The notes beneath the pieces were generated by a model. That model searched no databases. It worked only from the letters and a program-made list of their open reading frames with translations, and had not been told where the DNA came from. A DNA stretch of 64,000 nt from a virus: the IMG/VR virus record IMGVR_UViG_3300027749_000038; one strand, given 5' to 3'. The position numbers and the translations under genes were made by a program. Of this stretch, positions 16,182 through 40,555 are shown piece after piece. Each line of letters opens with the position of its first letter. Position 1 is the first letter of the stretch.

Positions 16182-16358
16182 ATGATTCGTTCCTTGTCCC
16201 TCTTCGCGTTCCTGGTGTCCCTCACCTACCTCACCTGCCCGGACATCCTCACCTACGCAACCCTCACCGTCCTAGCAGTCCTTTCCCTGGCGATCCACCT
16301 TTCCCACTACGTCCTCCTGGGACTGTTGTTCTTCGCAGTCATCCTCATCGCTCGATAA
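16182..16358 (+). CDS. early small membrane protein
   Basis: Very hydrophobic 58 aa; promoter copy at 16147. Confidence 0.7.
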   Translation: MIRSLSLFAFLVSLTYLTCPDILTYATLTVLAVLSLAIHLSHYVLLGLLFFAVILIAR

Positions 16359-16396
16359 GCCTTGTGTTTCCCCTCTTCCTCCTCCATAATAGAAAC

Positions 16397-16549
16397 ATGA
16401 TTAACGAATACGACATGTCCACCGTAGACAAGCTCAACCTCATCGCTCAGGTGTTCGGGAAGATCGCGATCAACTTCTGGCCGGTGATTGTCCTGGGAAT
16501 CGTTGCAGCAGTGATCCTCCACAAGCATGAGACCCGCAGGACGCGCTAA
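16397..16549 (+). CDS. early single-TM protein
   Basis: Promoter copy at 16362; hydrophobic segment followed by a basic tail. Confidence 0.7.
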   Translation: MINEYDMSTVDKLNLIAQVFGKIAINFWPVIVLGIVAAVILHKHETRRTR

Positions 16550-16557
16550 TTATTAAC

Positions 16558-16788
16558 ATGGGACTCGAGAAAGCAATTCAATATGGTAAAGAACACCGTC
16601 AGCCTTATCGCGGAAGTAAAGCTTGGGATTCTCATTGTAGGAATCACAACGCTTGTGACTATTGTAGGAACAATCGACTTCACGCCGACCAAGTCCGGGA
16701 ATATAGTGCCCGAGAAGAACCCCTGGATTGGGAACTCGACCAGAGCCTCTATCCAGAGTGGTTTGAGCTAGACGGAGTCGCGGAATAG
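16558..16788 (+). CDS. conserved phage protein (KAIxxGKEHRxPYRGSKA..CRNH..C.YC family)
   Basis: Recognisable Cys/His motif family of unknown function. Confidence 0.8.
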   Translation: MGLEKAIQYGKEHRQPYRGSKAWDSHCRNHNACDYCRNNRLHADQVREYSAREEPLDWELDQSLYPEWFELDGVAE

Positions 16789-16825
16789 AGTGGAGGTTCC
16801 CCACATTAACCCTTAAGATATTAGC

Positions 16826-17011
16826 ATGATGAACGAAACAGAGAAGAAGTACAAAGCCAACGTCAAGCGCCTCGAACGGTTCGCCAAAGCTTTCACCAAG
16901 CTGAAGGTGAAGTTCCCCGAGGTCGTAGTCAGAGGAGACCAGAACGGATTTGCCCAGGCGACCATCCACGGTCTCCCAGGAGAGCAAGCCCGGGCCTATT
17001 TGAGCAACTAA
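16826..17011 (+). CDS. early hypothetical protein
   Basis: Promoter copy at 16791. Confidence 0.75.
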   Translation: MMNETEKKYKANVKRLERFAKAFTKLKVKFPEVVVRGDQNGFAQATIHGLPGEQARAYLSN

Positions 17012-17050
17012 GCCTTGCGGTTCCCCACATTAACCCTTAAGATAATCACA

Positions 17051-17248
17051 ATGAGTTACAAAGTCCTCACCCGTTCACTCGCCACCGACAAGTACCCCTA
17101 CCGGACCCATTCCGAGCACGAGACCCTCTGGCAGGCTATGTCAGTAGCTTCCCGGCTTGAGAAGAACACCGAGCTGGATGTCCTGGTCGAGCTCACCGAC
17201 AATGAGATCGTCAAAGTTCCCTTCAACGTCCTCGCTCTTGAAGCTTGA
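17051..17248 (+). CDS. early hypothetical protein
   Basis: Promoter copy at 17015. Confidence 0.75.
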   Translation: MSYKVLTRSLATDKYPYRTHSEHETLWQAMSVASRLEKNTELDVLVELTDNEIVKVPFNVLALEA

Positions 17249-17280
17249 GCTTCCCCACATAAACCCCTAAGATAAACACC

Positions 17281-17466
17281 ATGACAGACATCCTCGAATT
17301 CCGCAAGCAACTCGCAGCCAAGCACCCTAAGCTCGAACAGGTGATGAGAGGGCCAGCGCCTTCCCTCAAACTGCAAGCCACGATGCAGAAGTTCAGCCAG
17401 CAGCTCTGCTTGGCTAGGGCCAAGCAGAGGGAAGGAGTGGTCCTCAAGACTCCCGAGCGTGAGTAA
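17281..17466 (+). CDS. early hypothetical protein
   Basis: Promoter copy at 17245. Confidence 0.7.
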   Translation: MTDILEFRKQLAAKHPKLEQVMRGPAPSLKLQATMQKFSQQLCLARAKQREGVVLKTPERE

Positions 17467-17504
17467 GTGTTGAGCTTCCCCCTTATAACCCTTAAGATAT
17501 TTAC

Positions 17505-17888
17505 ATGATGAATGACACGATGATTGCCCGCACCGAACTCGAAGAGCTGATGGATGAGTATTGTGACTACCACAAGGACGTCCACGGTGTCAAGGCTCGT
17601 TGGATCTACAACACCGGAGTCACGGTAGAGGAGCTGAAGAGGATGCTCGCTAGCCTGGAACGTCAGTACCACGAGCAGGTCGAGTTCGAGCGCAAGCAGT
17701 CGGCTCGCAATGAGCAGGCAGCTCGGGAGCAGATCCGGGTCCTCATGCAGCACGGGGCTCAGGACGTGGCGATGGCGATCCGCTGGTTACACGATGCTCA
17801 GGACACCCAAGGGGACAATCGGTTCCTCGACTTCGACCTGGGATGTACCTACGGCTTCATCGACAGCCTTCTCAAGAACGGCCTCTAA
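17505..17888 (+). CDS. early conserved hypothetical protein (Y.DYHKDVHGVKAR motif)
   Basis: Promoter copy at 17470. Confidence 0.8.
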   Translation: MMNDTMIARTELEELMDEYCDYHKDVHGVKARWIYNTGVTVEELKRMLASLERQYHEQVEFERKQSARNEQAAREQIRVLMQHGAQDVAMAIRWLHDAQDTQGDNRFLDFDLGCTYGFIDSLLKNGL

Positions 17889-17932
17889 GAGAGGTGTTGA
17901 GCTTCCCCAGTATCTCCTTTAAGATCTTAACA

Positions 17933-18169
17933 ATGAGCAATACGATTACTCAAGCAGACCTCTACAACGACTACCTCACCGCCTTTCGAGCCTTGCACCC
18001 TTGTGACGCCAGAGACCTGAGACGCTGTGCCAGGATAGAGCTTCTGAGTCGCGGGGACCGAGAGATTAATTCTGGTGACGTAGACAACCTGGTGTATACC
18101 TGGTTCAAACTATACGAAAGCTTCAGCCAGGAAGTGATCGACGGACTCCGAGACTATTACCTCGACTAA
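17933..18169 (+). CDS. early hypothetical protein
   Basis: Promoter copy at 17897. Confidence 0.75.
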   Translation: MSNTITQADLYNDYLTAFRALHPCDARDLRRCARIELLSRGDREINSGDVDNLVYTWFKLYESFSQEVIDGLRDYYLD

Positions 18170-18241
18170 AGACTTTAGTCGGGGTAAATTACCTCGACTA
18201 AGGTGTTGAGGTTCCCCAGTACATCCTTTAATATCTTAACA

Positions 18242-18538
18242 ATGAAAGACACCATGACCACAAAAGCAACCATCATCGAATCCGTCAAGACTGCAATTGC
18301 CACAGCAACGACCAACCTTATCAACTTCAGTAATGGAGGCATGTTGGTTGATGAAGAACTCGATATGGCTGTACATGCCTTTGTTGTTAATGGAGTTCTC
18401 TTCTCTACAGGATGGGCTGATACTACTCACTACAGCTTCCTGCAGAATGATGGCCCTCTAACTTGCGATGATGCTAAATTACTTCTCTGGTGGTTAGAAC
18501 AGAAAGATACTTGGATAAACAAGATTGGTTGCAACTAG
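18242..18538 (+). CDS. early hypothetical protein
   Basis: Promoter copy at 18206. Confidence 0.75.
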   Translation: MKDTMTTKATIIESVKTAIATATTNLINFSNGGMLVDEELDMAVHAFVVNGVLFSTGWADTTHYSFLQNDGPLTCDDAKLLLWWLEQKDTWINKIGCN

Positions 18539-18595
18539 GACCCCAAGCTCCTCCTCTGGTGGCTCGAACAGGGTGACACCAAGATCAACAAGTAG
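18539..18595 (+). pseudogene. orphan 3' relic DPKLLLWWLEQGDTKINK* duplicating the upstream gene's C-terminus
   Basis: Matches DAKLLLWWLEQKDTWINK of 18242..18538 but uses GC3-rich codons; no start codon. Confidence 0.75.
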
Positions 18596-18633
18596 TCCTT
18601 GCAGTTCCCCACTTAGTCCTCTAATATTATTAC

Positions 18634-18945
18634 ATGATGAAGAACACCAAGAAAGAGTTAGTCAAGGTCAGCAGCCAGTTCCGCCTCTTAGCTCGGCATG
18701 CAGGCTGTGTAGAGATCATTGAGGAACGCTATGCCAACCCTAGCAAGCCTAACCTCACCAAGCTCTGGGTCGTGAATGGGGTCCATGAGTTCAAGCAACA
18801 AGGGCATGCTCGCACCTATATGCGTATGCTGGCAGACAGGGTCGGTGGGGATCAGAAACTTACTGACGAGACCTACAAGGCAGCTTGGGATAATGTCATT
18901 CCCACCTACACCCCAGAAGCTAAGGCAGCAGCCATTCTGGGTTGA
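18634..18945 (+). CDS. early hypothetical protein
   Basis: Promoter copy at 18599. Confidence 0.8.
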   Translation: MMKNTKKELVKVSSQFRLLARHAGCVEIIEERYANPSKPNLTKLWVVNGVHEFKQQGHARTYMRMLADRVGGDQKLTDETYKAAWDNVIPTYTPEAKAAAILG

Positions 18946-18979
18946 GCTTCCCCACATCCTCAGCTAATATAGATACAAG

Positions 18980-19237
18980 ATGAAGAACACATACACCCGA
19001 GTCCTCAGCACGAAGCAAGTCAACGTCCTCGCCAAGGAAGCCAAGCGCGTCCAGTACATCGTCAATAAGGTCCGCGTCTTCCACGCCTCTTCGGTGGATG
19101 CCATCACGGTGCTTGACAATGAGGACAATGCCCTGGTGTTCAAAGCCCTCCGCGCGAACAGAGACACCTGGATAGTGACCTTCTCGAAGACCTACTGGCA
19201 GAGTCCAGAGGACGCCGTACTTGCCCAGGGCATCTAA
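18980..19237 (+). CDS. early hypothetical protein
   Basis: Promoter copy at 18942. Confidence 0.8.
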   Translation: MKNTYTRVLSTKQVNVLAKEAKRVQYIVNKVRVFHASSVDAITVLDNEDNALVFKALRANRDTWIVTFSKTYWQSPEDAVLAQGI

Positions 19238-19279
19238 GTAGTCCGTGAGCTTCCCCATTACCTAAGCTAAGATATAAAC

Positions 19280-19498
19280 ATGATGAAGAACAAATACATC
19301 CAGTCCGAAGCAGCCCAGTCCCACGCCGCAGAGATCCTCAAAGGAGGACATGTCTCAGTGGCTGAGGCAGTCCAGATCATCCTCCAATACATCTCCACCT
19401 GCCGTGGCCGAGCGAACCACGCCGACGGAGTCTCCTACATGGAGGCCGTGCTCGAGCTAGTGTGTCAGGCCTGTGAGCCAGAGCAGGTGGTCCTCTAA
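19280..19498 (+). CDS. early hypothetical protein
   Basis: Promoter copy at 19245. Confidence 0.75.
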   Translation: MMKNKYIQSEAAQSHAAEILKGGHVSVAEAVQIILQYISTCRGRANHADGVSYMEAVLELVCQACEPEQVVL

Positions 19499-19540
19499 GT
19501 AGGCCTTGCGGTTCCCCATCTCCTCTGCTACTATTATTAC

Positions 19541-19798
19541 ATGATGAAGAACGACATGAACCACACCACCGCTGAAGACCATACCACCCCAATCGTCGGC
19601 GCCTCCTACCTCTGGCAGGGCATGCCCTGTGCAGTCCTGGAGACGAGGCCTAGTGAGCTCCGCACCTACACGTGGGATGTGAAGGTGGAGTACTTCAGCA
19701 AGGCCGACAAGTGCTACCTCTCTCTTTGGACTCCGTGGCTTCCAGGATGCTTCCTCCTGACCTTCAAGCCTGGTGGTCAGCTGACCCGAGTAGCGTAG
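19541..19798 (+). CDS. early hypothetical protein (last of the array)
   Basis: Promoter copy at 19506. Confidence 0.75.
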   Translation: MMKNDMNHTTAEDHTTPIVGASYLWQGMPCAVLETRPSELRTYTWDVKVEYFSKADKCYLSLWTPWLPGCFLLTFKPGGQLTRVA

Positions 19799-19810
19799 GC
19801 GGTGAGTCAA

Positions 19811-20072
19811 GCCCCAGGGGCGGAGAGGGACCTCTGGGGCGTTAGAGAGGCGCGGCAATTTTTTACACCGTGGTATGAAAGGACCCCGGTGTTTTGGAAA
19901 CACCCTATAGCTGGGGAAGGCGGCTGGGTGGGGTAGGGACTATTCGGGTACCTAGTCCATATCCCTCCTATACCGCTCTATTAGCTAGTGGGTACCCCCT
20001 ATGGCCTTTCAACGGAGACGGCTTGCGAAAAGGCTAAAAGCATCCGGTCCGCGGGGTACCCACTTTCATATC
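19811..20072 (+). ncRNA. candidate structured RNA (hairpin plus multi-branched domain)
   Basis: Stems 19811-20/19831-40, 19872-81/20063-72, 19888-94/19898-904, 19920-19976 and 19989-98/20053-62; G.U pairs all fit the + strand. Confidence 0.5.
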
Positions 20073-20097
20073 TTACCTTCCCCGGATAAATATCTCC

Positions 20098-20376
20098 ATG
20101 GTATTTTACGAAGAAGGTTCCTATGAAAGATTGCGCGCTGATGCTAGAGAGACTGTTAAGAATCTCCGAAGAGAGGCGGATAGTTATATAGCTCGTATAT
20201 TATCTTTACAAAATTTACTGGCGGAGGTGATGACTCGTAATGCTGATTTAGAATTAGAGAATGAACATCTTAAGGATTTTATTACCGAAAGAGATAAAGA
20301 ATCTAATTTGGTAAGTGAATCTATGATGCCAGTTCTTCAAGAAATAGTGGAAAGAAAGAATAAGAAATCTAAGTAA
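20098..20376 (+). CDS. late coiled-coil protein
   Basis: ATAAATA 5 nt before ATG; heptad pattern. Confidence 0.75.
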   Translation: MVFYEEGSYERLRADARETVKNLRREADSYIARILSLQNLLAEVMTRNADLELENEHLKDFITERDKESNLVSESMMPVLQEIVERKNKKSK

Positions 20377-39041: not shown

Positions 39042-39098
39042 AATAAGAGTTGATCTTATTTAGTTTTCACATATTATGTGAATAGTTCTTTTACATTT

Positions 39099-39719
39099 GG
39101 GGGCGTATTGGTTTCGACTGAGCGCTGAAAACCTTAGTTGCAATCCGAGGAAGTCTGGTTGGCCTCGTTAAAATCTCTGGACAAAACAAATAAATGCAAC
39201 TGATAATACAGAAGCACTCTTAGCTGAAGCAACGCACATCATCAACAACTTCGAGGACTACCTCGCAGAAGAAGAGATGTACGATCTCGCAGCCTAACAA
39301 ACAGAAATGGATCCTATTAAAATTTCTGGAGTACCACAATAGGTTTGAGTAAAATCGTGAACCTCAGGAAAAACAATCGAGAGGAGTTGGGCCCCTTGCA
39401 GTCCAACAGGTAGACCTTAACTAGTTAGCAGCCTATGGTCTTTAAGAGCTAACAAAATATGATTGTAGACGCTAAAGTCTAAGTTTTCAGGACAGCGGTT
39501 CAACTGAAATGCAGGGTCGGCTATTTGGAAACGAATAGTTCGTAAGGTGTATATCGGCGAACGGTTTAATATCCCAACACCGAGAGAAATCATAGAAATA
39601 TGAGACTCGTAGAGACTACCATCACCTACCTAAAGTAGAAATACTAAGGTAAAGGAATAGTCCAGACTACAAACACGTATGTGGTAGTGAAAACTATAGT
39701 AGTATGCCGCTCGCCTCCA
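39099..39719 (+). ncRNA. ssrA: tmRNA, interrupted by a group I intron
   Basis: GGGGGCG/CGCCTCC-A acceptor stem with G3.U70; GGTTTCGAC; helix 2 (ctgaaaac/gttttcag, gcaatc/gattgt); tag ORF 39196-39297 ending YDLAA*; T-arm agcgg-ttcaact|ccgct. Confidence 0.93.
39506..39706 (+). mobile_element. ORF-less group I intron (201 nt) in the tmRNA T-loop
   Basis: Follows an exon U and ends in G; R element gtagagacta (39609-18) and S element aaggaatagtcc (39652-63) form P7; removal restores a perfect T-arm. Confidence 0.88.
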
Positions 39720-39771
39720 CTCTTTAAAAATAGAGGGTTCAACTCATGTTACTAGAATAAGTAGCATAAGT

Positions 39772-40425
39772 ATGAACCCTCTTTTAATTATAGAATGCAA
39801 TTTTTGTAAATTACCTAAATCCAAGCGTAATATAAAAAGACATCAAGAAAAATGTTTTTATAATCCTTCTTGTTTTATTTTTTGCAAAACTTGCAACAAA
39901 CAACTTTTTGCTAAAAAGAAATTTTGTAATAATTCATGTGCTGCAAAATTCACCAATACAACAAGAACAGTTGACAGATCCTATATAACAGACTCTTGGA
40001 AAGAAAATATTAGTAATAAAAATAAACAAAATTGGAAAGAAGGAAAGTTGACATATTCTCAAAAAAGATTATTTTCTTCAAAGATAGAAAGAGAAATAGT
40101 TGCTCATTTTAAGAAAAAGTTTCCAAGAGACAAATGGAAAAGTGGAGGTAGATTGGCCTTGAATGATACAGAAAATTTAAGCAGAGATTTGTGGTCTGAT
40201 AAGCTTAAAATATGTTTCGAATATGATGGAATATGGCATTTTAAAGACATATACGGTCAATTAAACAAAAAACAAATAAAAGATAACTTATTCGAACTGT
40301 GGTGTATTAACAACAATTATAGGTTGATACGAGTGGATGAAGATTCTTATAAAAATATACAGCAAATTGAAGATTTGATTTATAACAATTATAATAATAT
40401 TATTAAAATAGGAGACAGATATTAA
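39772..40425 (+). mobile_element. free-standing endonuclease (Zn-finger N-terminus plus Vsr/DUF559-like PD-(D/E)XK domain)
   Basis: CxxC and CNNSCA motifs; SKIERE..DLWSDKLKICFEYDGIWH..YRLIRV. Confidence 0.75.
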
Positions 40426-40434
40426 CTCTTCCTC

Positions 40435-40450
40435 CCCCTCGCCTCCACCA
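40435..40450 (+). repeat. displaced duplicate of the tmRNA 3' end carrying CCA
   Basis: cccctcgcctccacca vs ccgctcgcctccac (39707-39720). Confidence 0.85.
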
Positions 40451-40555
40451 TTTTTATTTTAATTGGAGATATACTTCTCCATAAGCTTCTAAAAAAAGAG
40501 TTTCAAAATCTTTCATATCTCTTTACTTAGTGTCAATTAAATATAAATATACAAT

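Follow-up and report, generated by a model that had tools for sequence, protein, structure and literature searches.

Does the gene at positions 39099-39719 (plus strand) of the 64,000-nt stretch of viral DNA analysed here (the window) encode a working tmRNA, given that its T-loop is interrupted by a 201-nt insert? Our analyses indicate, with a probability of about 0.85, that it is a functional, phage-borne, one-piece tmRNA gene split by an ORF-less group I intron of the IC3 family, with a pre-tmRNA of 621 nt. Each element of the complete tmRNA scaffold described in the initial annotation was found in its place. Exon 1 (39099-39505, plus strand) carries the 5' acceptor strand GGGGGCG (39099-39105), PK1, the resume codon and tag frame, PK2-4, and the first part of the T-arm, AGCGG-TTCAACT (39494-39505), comprising the 5' strand of the T-stem (39494-39498) and the T-loop (39499-39505). 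Exon 2 (39707-39719, plus strand) supplies the T-stem 3' strand CCGCT (39707-39711), the acceptor 3' strand CGCCTCC (39712-39718) and the discriminator A39719, and is followed directly by ACTC, without an encoded CCA. Excision yields a tRNA-like domain with a 7-bp acceptor stem (GGGGGCG/CGCCUCC) containing a G3.U70 pair, a T-arm of a 5-bp stem and 7-nt loop (AGCGG-UUCAACU-CCGCU), and a discriminator A. On unspliced DNA, the tmRNA model RF00023 scored 65.7 bits (cut-off 47) over 39107-39506, with the match breaking off exactly at the T-loop, compared to 135-136 bits for intronless relatives. ARAGORN, also proposed as a check in the initial annotation, called no tmRNA on the raw unspliced window, but a 420-nt tmRNA with a 33-aa tag after removal of 39506-39706 in silico.

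The tag reading frame called by ARAGORN, ATDNTEALLAEATHIINNFEDYLAEEEMYDLAA plus stop (39196-39297, plus strand), starts with the resume codon GCA at 39196 and ends in YDLAA. In all relatives the frame comprises 32-33 aa and ends in LAA, with conservative substitutions and, in one relative, an in-frame 3-nt indel. Exon 1 is 86-97% identical to the tmRNA genes of ten other lake phage loci. A consensus scan revealed a candidate sigma-70-like promoter at 39050-39077 (plus strand; TTGATC, 16-nt spacer, TATTAT; 9/12 matches), about 20 nt upstream of the mature 5' end, which may drive the gene. Downstream, a long hairpin at 39732-39789 (plus strand; AGAGGGTTCA at 39732-41 with TGAACCCTCT at 39773-82, and an inner 8-bp stem), followed by TTTAATT, likely serves as the terminator of the tmRNA gene; it buries the start ATG of the downstream ORF and might occlude it. 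The 5' arm of this hairpin, AGAGGGTTCAACT (39732-44), resembles a leftover 5' half of a T-arm. A MIR405 match at the hairpin was discarded as a chance hit of the hairpin type.

The boundaries of the insert (39506-39706), which begins after U39505 (T-loop nucleotide 7), before the T-stem, and ends with G39706, were fixed independently by intronless lake phage contigs that display the empty site TTCAACT|CCCCT. Nine intronless relatives read ...GGTTCAACT|CCCCTCGCCTCCACCA at the insertion point, and the intronless L128 has ...CCGCT...; these empty sites bear out the earlier claim of an insert after the U of TTCAACT ending in G. Because G39506 differs from C39707 and T39505 from G39706, no shifted pair of boundaries gives an identical product. 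The T-stem AGCGG/CCGCT differs from the ancestral AGGGG/CCCCT by a change that is compensated across the intron. Both splice sites have the nucleotides expected of a group I intron, namely a U39505.G39515 wobble in P1 and a terminal omega-G39706. The insertion point corresponds to subsite 8 in the numbering of internucleotide positions 1-8 (between loop nucleotide 7 and the stem; PMC11915505), which places the gene among the intron-form tmRNAs as defined there.

To which family the insert belongs was addressed with R1, a covariance model built from 26 phage tRNA-gene introns of the IC3 type and not from the window; the classical tRNA introns have been assigned to IC3 (bioRxiv 10.1101/2020.01.27.920355). 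The R1 family consists of introns of about 200 nt in ARAGORN-validated tRNA-Leu(UAA), Asn, Arg, Thr, Ala and Phe genes. R1 matched exactly 39506-39706 (plus strand; model positions 1-202; 155.9 bits, E 7e-42), which was its sole match in the 64 kb and a higher score than that of any non-training intron tested. The family fold pairs in 98.2% of cells and shows compensatory changes in 33 of 49 pairs; none of 500 shuffles came up to this, and slid controls gave 28-41%. All helices from P2 to P9 form in the window intron, including the P3/P7 pseudoknot core: P2 (39521-27/39532-38), P3 (39546-49/39623-26), P4 (39554-59/39578-83), P5 (39563-64/39573-74), P6 (39584-86/39606-08), P6a (39590-93/39600-03), P7 (39612,39614-17/39659-63), P8 (39627-30/39648-51), P9 (39666-70/39699-703), P9a (39674-75/39682-83) and P9b (39684-88/39693-97). 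The R/S-like elements and P7 noted in the initial annotation are real; in P7, GAGACU (39612-39617) pairs with AGUCC (39659-39663), leaving A39613 bulged. Since the set was collected by the P7 motif, P7 is invariant in it and its covariation uninformative, and one relative (L003) has a U-A to C-G change in P7 in the R1 alignment. Changes in P6/P6a of the window intron are compensated. Compared to the family, J3/4 reads AUA instead of AAAU, P4 contains a CxA mismatch, P1 has one mismatch, and one A is missing after P7. No plus-strand ORF of at least 40 aa lies inside the intron.

The only one of the proposed checks that failed was the general group I model RF00028 (cut-off 50 bits), which did not match the insert either at the gathering threshold or in searches of 751 nt and of 221 nt with E <= 10 as the limit. 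The same model scored 91.1 and 88.7 bits on the inserts of two related phage loci (L126 and L129) and 55.4 bits on the tRNA-Leu intron of L002 when this was searched alone, and missed the latter in a pooled search. As it detects relatives and not the window insert, RF00028 is insufficiently sensitive here, and because validated relatives were also missed in the pooled search, we did not read its blank as evidence against a group I intron. Searching with a 23-nt P8 word for a near-identical intron elsewhere returned only L061, and R1 had no match in four Chthoniobacteraceae MAGs and three related phage records (G005, G006, G008), so that no intron donor was identified.

The internal guide sequence (39511-39520, plus strand) was read from a table of P1 and P10 pairings made for each sequence. 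In P1, GGUCGG (39515-20) faces exon UUCAACU with a G.U at -1, followed by G-C, U-A, CxA, G-C and G.U (5/6 paired), and in P10, GCAG (39511-14) faces CCGC (39707-10) with 3/4 paired. Across the family, the homologous guide columns vary in step with the exon and pair with it in at least 20 relatives; the P1 of the window is no weaker than that of many family members. The guide GGGUCG of the window is the one found in tRNA-Leu introns inserted after GGGACU (L032, L017, L112). Of this tRNA-Leu target, P1 retains only the ACU, which suggests that the intron jumped to a similar-looking site.

In three lake metatranscriptomes, contigs with 99.4% identity to exon 1 pass directly from 39505 into CCGCTCGCC(TCCAC), which is the predicted exon-exon junction. 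In runs X15 and X17, the contigs span 39145/39156-39505 with two differences and continue with CCGCTCGCCTCCAC and CCGCTCGCC. In line with the ARAGORN call on the excised form, the RNA junction agrees with the earlier prediction that excision at 39505/39707 gives AGCGG-TTCAACT-CCGCT, and it supports splicing without proving it: the transcribed strain (39353G/39411C) lies two SNPs from the window, its own DNA was not seen, the contigs extend only 9-14 letters past the joint, too few for the search tool to report it as one, and at their 5' ends they switch into host tmRNA via a shared 41-nt stretch, as Logan contigs can be chimeric. The sole intronless DNA allele found with a CCGCT T-stem was L128, at just 91% identity, and none above 91% was found. 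The three RNA runs did not cover the intron or the flanking genes, which we did not take as evidence. At the DNA level, an independent Logan assembly (run X1, which may be the source sample) contains both intron-form junctions with 0 differences, in one piece covering 39466-39634 across the 5' junction and another running from 39605 onward across the 3' junction inside a 12.2-kb contig.

The intron is part of a larger, 929-nt insertion (39506-40434), which also comprises an extra 3' exon and a gene for a putative endonuclease of DUF559 type. The 217-aa ORF (39772-40425, plus strand) starts 53 nt downstream of exon 2, is 60% identical to the ORF at the same position in L126, and combines a Cys-rich N-terminus with a DUF559/Vsr-like C-terminal half. 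In the ESM Atlas it lies closest to clusters of viral DUF559/NUMOD3 'homing endonuclease' proteins (scores 0.93-0.96), which we treat as a lead only; a PHROG HNH match was weak, and Pfam and PDB sequence searches gave nothing usable. Drawn from language-model similarity only, the assignment as a free-standing homing nuclease is putative. Endonuclease relatives L143-L147 lack the R1 intron. Immediately beyond the insertion, at 40435-40450 (plus strand), CCCCT-CGCCTCC-A-CCA is identical to the 3' end of intronless relatives and reads as a 'ghost' of the ancestral tmRNA 3' end, displaced by the 929 nt. Indeed, the sequence that directly follows TTCAACT in L127 aligns to 40435-40492 of the window at 94.8%, and synteny continues beyond. 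Intron and endonuclease ORF are both missing in L124, L125, L127 and L130-L136; presence of the intron is thus polymorphic in the population, with intronless alleles in the majority. L126 has a like architecture with a different intron. Three placements of the splice sites fit the L126/L129 insert, namely after AGGGGU (8-nt loop), within the G run (-1 G), or after UGCAAU, the last with an omega-G in UCAAG, a UGCAAUU loop and subsite 7; the RF00028 alignment does not choose among them.

Could the insert be a group I intron by descent that has lost splicing, or never spliced at this foreign site, leaving a tmRNA killed by a selfish insertion and an RNA junction that stems from a close intronless allele? 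The missing RF00028 match, the atypical J3/4, the mismatches in P1 and P4, the offset of two SNPs in an RNA strain whose DNA is unseen and the predominance of intronless alleles would all suit such a history, as would a guide identical to that of tRNA-Leu relatives, that is, not re-tuned to the new exon. We nevertheless consider it unlikely, since all ten helices are intact with compensated P6/P6a changes, R1 ranks the insert above every non-training intron tested, the two sides of the intron carry matching T-stem changes, the tag frame is the same as in intronless relatives, the P1 pairing is within the range of the family, and the closest intronless CCGCT-stem allele found in DNA is only 91% identical.

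Far less probable are two other explanations. The phage might intend no repair by splicing, and instead use the 5' part alone or deploy the transcript as a decoy against SmpB or the alanyl-tRNA synthetase of the host. Decoys resembling tmRNA exist in phages (PMC4131195), the TLD-only molecule of mycobacteriophage DS6A being a proposed case, and the tRNA-like domain is almost identical to that of the putative host, with no SmpB gene in the complete related phage genome; yet several observations make this very doubtful: the 33-aa frame is maintained, its substitutions being conservative and its indel in frame; the acceptor 3' strand is intact and follows the intron immediately; and the intronless relatives are complete tmRNA genes (RF00023 135-136 bits). 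Least credible of all is an assembly artefact, in which a tRNA-gene intron and a tmRNA gene of different phages were joined via short shared words. The sequence is metagenome-derived, and Logan RNA contigs are chimeric at shared words, but X1 (possibly the source sample) reproduced both junctions without a difference, the boundaries fall exactly at the border of T-loop and T-stem with a -1 U and an omega-G, the T-stem change has its compensating partner in the 3' exon, and the architecture recurs in L126, whose intron is different and whose endonuclease is 60% identical.

Under the preferred reading of a functional, intron-split tmRNA gene, transcription would start near 39085 and stop at the 39732-39789 hairpin, with the 5' leader cut off at G39099. 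The intron would fold with P1 formed by T-loop residues 39500-39505 and the guide GGUCGG, including the U39505.G39515 wobble; external guanosine would attack after U39505, omega-G39706 would then dock in P7, and exon ligation would restore the T-arm AGCGG-UUCAACU-CCGCU. Following trimming of the 3' trailer and CCA addition by host enzymes, the RNA would be charged with alanine (G3.U70) and, together with host SmpB, add the 33-residue tag ending in LAA. SmpB (PF01668) was absent from related phage records, including a complete related 227-kb genome, and the phage tmRNA presumably uses the host protein. The initial annotation proposed that ribosome rescue by this phage depends on self-splicing; this would hold for the phage's own tmRNA only, as the probable host expresses a tmRNA itself, and at a high level.

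The phage tRNA-like domain is near-identical to that of freshwater Chthoniobacteraceae tmRNA, which makes this family a putative host of the uncultured lake phage that can be put to the test. A megablast comparison of 20 kb with the phage collection found no match. The look-alike bacterial tmRNA has an 11-aa tag (ANDYEDLALAA) compared to 33 aa in the phage. The intron was probably a recent, optional acquisition, arriving with a replacement 3' exon and the adjacent endonuclease gene when the 929-nt insertion entered a host-like T-arm. A 33-nt stretch of the T-arm is letter-for-letter equal in intronless phage alleles and in chromosomal ssrA of freshwater Chthoniobacteraceae, the putative host. 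Speculatively, the 929-nt cassette may act as a composite selfish element, with a nuclease directed at this stretch in unprotected tmRNA T-arms, so that the host tmRNA gene could be cut during infection while the intron-split, stem-altered copy stays immune and the 33-residue tag replaces the 11-residue host tag; we regard this scenario as improbable.

Intron-form tmRNA was reportedly first found by Williams in 2002, in Clostridium botulinum. The initial annotation had regarded tmRNA introns as rare, citing a T-loop intron of that species; such introns are no longer known from that species alone, as 883 unique bacterial intron-form sequences from 21 phyla have been collected, at four T-loop subsites (2, 3, 7, 8); the tmRNA_intron covariance model of that study has a criterion of >=150 bits and >=500 bp (PMC11915505). 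Like these bacterial genes, the phage gene is in one piece, with a group I intron in the T-psi-C loop, a -1 U and an omega-G, and excision restores a 7-nt loop. In contrast to them, it resides in a phage genome and uses subsite 8, which is rare and reported from Saprospiraceae only (PMC11915505), and its intron, at 201 nt, is shorter than that of C. botulinum (287 nt; PMC2729099) and than the average of the newest set (414 nt; PMC11915505), making it a compact candidate ribozyme. Moreover, the P7.1 region, where tmRNA introns carry most of their endonuclease genes (PMC11915505), is missing from the window intron, and the endonuclease gene lies outside that intron. Phage-encoded tmRNAs are known from the mycobacteriophage Bxz1 group, Bacillus phage G and Melnitz-like phages, in standard or two-piece form (PMC4131195, PMC9004378); the present gene likewise is an own ssrA gene resembling the tmRNA of a bacterial lineage, but is of intron form. 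As we found no report of an intron-form tmRNA in a phage in the literature, the form, known in bacteria, appears not to have been described in phages yet, and its range is widened here to phages and to the rare subsite 8. As both ARAGORN and RF00028 miss such an arrangement, phage tmRNAs and introns are undercounted.

With IC3 introns in tRNA anticodon loops (cyanobacterial and plastid tRNA-Leu(UAA), phage tRNA genes), the window intron shares full-length homology and the same helices, in which P2 and P9b are capped by GAAA loops and P8 contains a receptor-like CCUAA...UAAGG motif. It differs from them in its site, a tmRNA T-loop instead of an anticodon loop, and in its divergent J3/4 and P6; among more than 119 viral loci with the family motif, none lies in a tmRNA. 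A jump from anticodon loop to tmRNA T-loop, with the old guide kept at a look-alike ACU site, would exemplify how introns colonise new RNA genes. In cyanophage S-PM2, the ORF-less psbA intron and the free-standing endonuclease F-CphI are said to engage in collaborative homing. Similarly, the ORF-less window intron adjoins a separate, putative endonuclease gene, and close relatives lack both; unlike in S-PM2, the cassette brings an additional 3' exon, and the original 3' end survives as a ghost. Intronless alleles, alleles with another, unlike intron, and endonuclease cassettes that have shifted the gene end all occur in this one phage lineage and form a natural series in which to study homing and the escape from it.

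The tmRNA gene on the plus strand (39099-39719) starts with GGGGGCG (39099-39105) and reaches the T-stem 5' strand and T-loop, AGCGG-TTCAACT (39494-39505), where a 201-nt insert (39506-39706), preceded by U and ending in G, separates them from CCGCT, CGCCTCC and A (39707-39719), which finish the T-stem (5 bp) and the acceptor stem (7 bp, with G3.U70). The sequence reads as the initial annotation had described it, confirming a complete tmRNA with this insert. Both tmRNA searches proposed there agreed: the Rfam tmRNA model RF00023 matched at 65.7 bits (cut-off 47; 39107-39506), its alignment ending exactly within the T-loop, and ARAGORN, which called no tmRNA gene on the raw DNA, predicted one of 420 nt, encoding the tag ATDNTEALLAEATHIINNFEDYLAEEEMYDLAA, after scripted removal of 39506-39706. 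Across the relatives (L124-L136), the tag frame (39196-39297 in the window) encodes 32-33 aa, with conservative substitutions and one in-frame indel. The phage tag is acidic and conserved with an invariable LAA ending, and is about three times as long as the look-alike bacterial tag, which it exceeds by 22 residues.

The Rfam group I intron model RF00028, also suggested as a check, did not match the insert, even at E ≤ 10 on 221 nt. Three phage sequences resembled the 3' part of the insert by blastn: an annotated tRNA-Arg gene (286 nt) from a Microcoleus phage, part of a phage of 735 kb, and an intron region in a crAss-like phage helicase gene. A word scan showed that more than 119 viral loci share a 16-nt word from the P7/P9 region. 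ARAGORN, with introns allowed, identified 68 of them as anticodon-loop introns in otherwise normal tRNA genes (tRNA-Leu(UAA), Asn, Arg, Thr, Ala, and Phe), mostly ~196-230 nt long, and none of these viral loci had the intron in a tmRNA. Subgroup IC3 is the class of the classical tRNA introns (Leu CUU/AAAA and others; bioRxiv 10.1101/2020.01.27.920355). A covariance model, R1, built from 26 aligned tRNA-gene introns (A2) with the window excluded, matched exactly 39506-39706 (model positions 1-202, 155.9 bits, E 7e-42) and nothing else anywhere in the 64 kb. The interpretation as a group I intron in the T-loop of a phage tmRNA is supported. A classical tRNA-Leu(UAA) intron from the retrieved loci (L002:465-689) went unseen by Rfam at E ≤ 1 when L001-L003 were pooled and was found at 55.4 bits when searched alone (225 nt); the visibility of compact IC3 introns in Rfam scans hinges on filter settings.

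Fold statistics were derived from a 27-sequence alignment (A1). A group I fold comprising P2, P3, P4, P5, P6, P6a, P7 (pseudoknot), P8, and a three-way P9 was paired in 98.2% of cells, with compensatory changes in 33 of 49 pairs and an invariant P7, the latter because the sequences were collected by a P7 word. None of 500 shuffles was as good, and slid controls reached 28-41%. All helices of the family fold form in the window, including the P7 listed in the initial annotation. Of 84 conserved columns, the window differs from the family at 10. Compensated changes in P6/P6a account for five of these and J3/4 (AUA vs AAAU in the family) for three; the others are one A missing after P7 and one column in the exon. 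Deviations in other family members are as large (up to 14 columns). The J3/4 oddity (39551-39553) coincides with the altered yet compensated P6/P6a pairs (39584-39608; C-G to A-U, C-G to U-A, and G.U to G-C). In group I introns, J3/4 is expected to contact P6, and the two sets of changes may be concerted.

Exact-word scans of viral and metagenome collections gathered 13 loci with related tmRNA genes, with exon 1 identities of 86-97%. Nine are insert-free and read ...ACAGGGGTTCAACT|CCCCTCGCCTCCAC(CA), and the likewise insert-free locus L128, which has the same T-stem as the window, reads ...AGCGGTTCAACT|CCGCTCGCCTCCACCA. Because these loci show the empty site, the insert limits 39505/39707 are independent of intron rules. 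In L127, which comes from the contig of L123, the closest relative, the sequence directly after TTCAACT matches window positions 40435-40492 (94.8%) and synteny extends further; the window therefore holds a 929-nt insertion (39506-40434), downstream of which the original tmRNA 3' end persists as a ghost, CCCCTCGCCTCCACCA (40435-40450).

Across the intron family, a guide sequence in homologous columns just 5' of P2 varies together with the exon (GAGU with ACUU, GGUC with GACU, GGCC with GGCU, GCAGC with GCUGU), the first pair being a G.U at -1 in every case. In the window, the guide GGUCGG (39515-39520) faces UUCAACU as G.U, G-C, U-A, CxA, G-C, and G.U, and the four bases preceding it pair at three of four positions with exon 2 CCGC (P10). 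An identical guide occurs in the closest relatives (L032, L017, L112), which are tRNA-Leu(UAA) introns sited after GGGACU. Most simply, we infer that a tRNA-Leu intron jumped into the T-loop of the tmRNA, at an ACU resembling its former site, and was barely re-tuned.

The intron form was present in DNA run X1 as one contig covering 39466-39634 and a 12.2-kb contig covering 39605-40600, both without differences, and X1 may be the source sample of the window. The same run also contains an intronless allele, a loose end CCCCTCGCCT following 39505. In lake metatranscriptomes X15, X16, and X17 (three study codes), contigs spanning 39145/39156-39505 differ from the window at two positions (39353 A>G, 39411 T>C). 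Past 39505, the X15 and X17 contigs read CCGCTCGCCTCCAC and CCGCTCGCC, exactly 39707-39720 and 39707-39715, which is the junction named in the initial annotation as a test of splicing. L128, the sole intronless DNA allele found with this T-stem, has 91% identity and neither of the RNA-contig variants. The RNA contigs extend only 9-14 letters past the joint, and the two-SNP strain is known from RNA contigs alone. Their 5' ends are chimeric and enter a bacterial tmRNA via a common 41-nt stretch; at window positions 39145-39194, X15 and X16 switch through it from a Spartobacteria-type tmRNA (GTTAGAGACACAGACGGCATG) to the phage tmRNA. The same lake RNA samples thus contain host-type as well as phage tmRNAs, and the continuity of contigs at this point is unreliable. 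As evidence of splicing, the junction contigs are supportive, not conclusive.

Exon 2 is followed by a long two-tier hairpin (39732-39782, then TTTAATT; 39732-39789), whose 5' arm, AGAGGGTTCAACT, resembles a remnant half of a T-arm and whose 3' arm includes the ATG (39772-39774) of a 217-aa ORF (39772-40425). The hairpin is likely a terminator that would also restrain translation of this putative nuclease. The ORF had no match in Pfam and PDB searches; in the ESM Atlas, the clusters closest to it are viral 'homing endonuclease' proteins of the DUF559/NUMOD3 type (0.93-0.96), a lead only. An ORF in L126, likewise located between a live tmRNA 3' end and a ghost CCCCTCGCCTCCACCA, shares 60% identity with it. 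Remoter relatives occur in five viral loci, in one of which (L143:412-1219) the relative, 43% identical, immediately precedes a hit to a permuted, two-piece tmRNA (RF04321, 58.1 bits), which fits a putative nuclease family linked to phage tmRNA genes. In the sister tmRNA alleles L126 (5926-6137, minus strand) and L129 (524-745), the same T-arm is interrupted by a distinct group I intron, ~205 nt long (RF00028 91.1 and 88.7 bits; R1 72-74 bits), and the phage tmRNA lineage was therefore invaded at least twice. No placement of that insert combines a -1 U, omega-G, and the usual UUCAAGU loop; one placement, with a 5' exon ...UGCAAU and omega-G in UCAAG, would give a 7-nt loop, UGCAAUU, at subsite 7. 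The endonuclease ORF and a ghost 3' end are both found in L126 but are absent from L129, where a tRNA-Gly gene follows. R1 detected no intron of its type in related phage records, among them a complete genome of 227 kb. An optional intron and an equally optional flanking nuclease gene, a compensated change in the T-stem (AGGGG/CCCCT to AGCGG/CCGCT), and a displaced gene end together form the pattern of a mobile intron working with an adjoining putative nuclease.

A bacterial tmRNA highly expressed in the same RNA and DNA runs was traced by genome scan to freshwater Chthoniobacteraceae/Spartobacteria MAGs (tag ANDYEDLALAA). Its 5' tRNA-like strand, PK1, and 3' end (AGGACAGGGGTTCAACTCCCCTCGCCTCCACCA) are near letter-for-letter those of the phage, and the remainder is ~60% identical. 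The near-identical stretches in the window are 39099-39194 and 39490-39505 (vs L137-L141). This near-identity offers a host lead for the uncultured phage. Given the shared tRNA-like domain, that bacterium's ssrA also contains the ancestral T-arm, which the putative nuclease is presumed to target. Because the complete genome of a related phage lacks an SmpB gene, the phage tmRNA presumably relies on host SmpB. The phage context is based on collagen-like tail-fibre proteins, a minor coat protein, ribonucleotide reductase, and IMG/VR relatives. A 3.9-kb island (16200-20100) has 47-57% G+C in a genome of ~35% and contains only small plus-strand ORFs (70-127 aa).

The main interest of the locus lies in intron mobility, annotation, and the host link. 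tmRNAs occur in ~2.3% of phage genomes (PMC9004378), and the phage forms named in PMC4131195 include standard, two-piece, and TLD-only; our literature search found no published case of an intron-form tmRNA in a phage. In bacteria, 883 unique sequences of intron-form tmRNA genes are listed from 21 phyla; their intron is always in the T-loop, mostly at subsite 7, else at 2, 3, or 8 (PMC11915505). The C. botulinum intron is 287 nt long and self-splicing (PMC2729099). Among these bacterial forms, subsite 8, where the window intron sits, is reported only from Saprospiraceae (PMC11915505). The window's variant of this known gene form is phage-borne; its intron is of the IC3 tRNA-intron type and lies at subsite 8, and a spare exon and an external putative nuclease gene travel with it.
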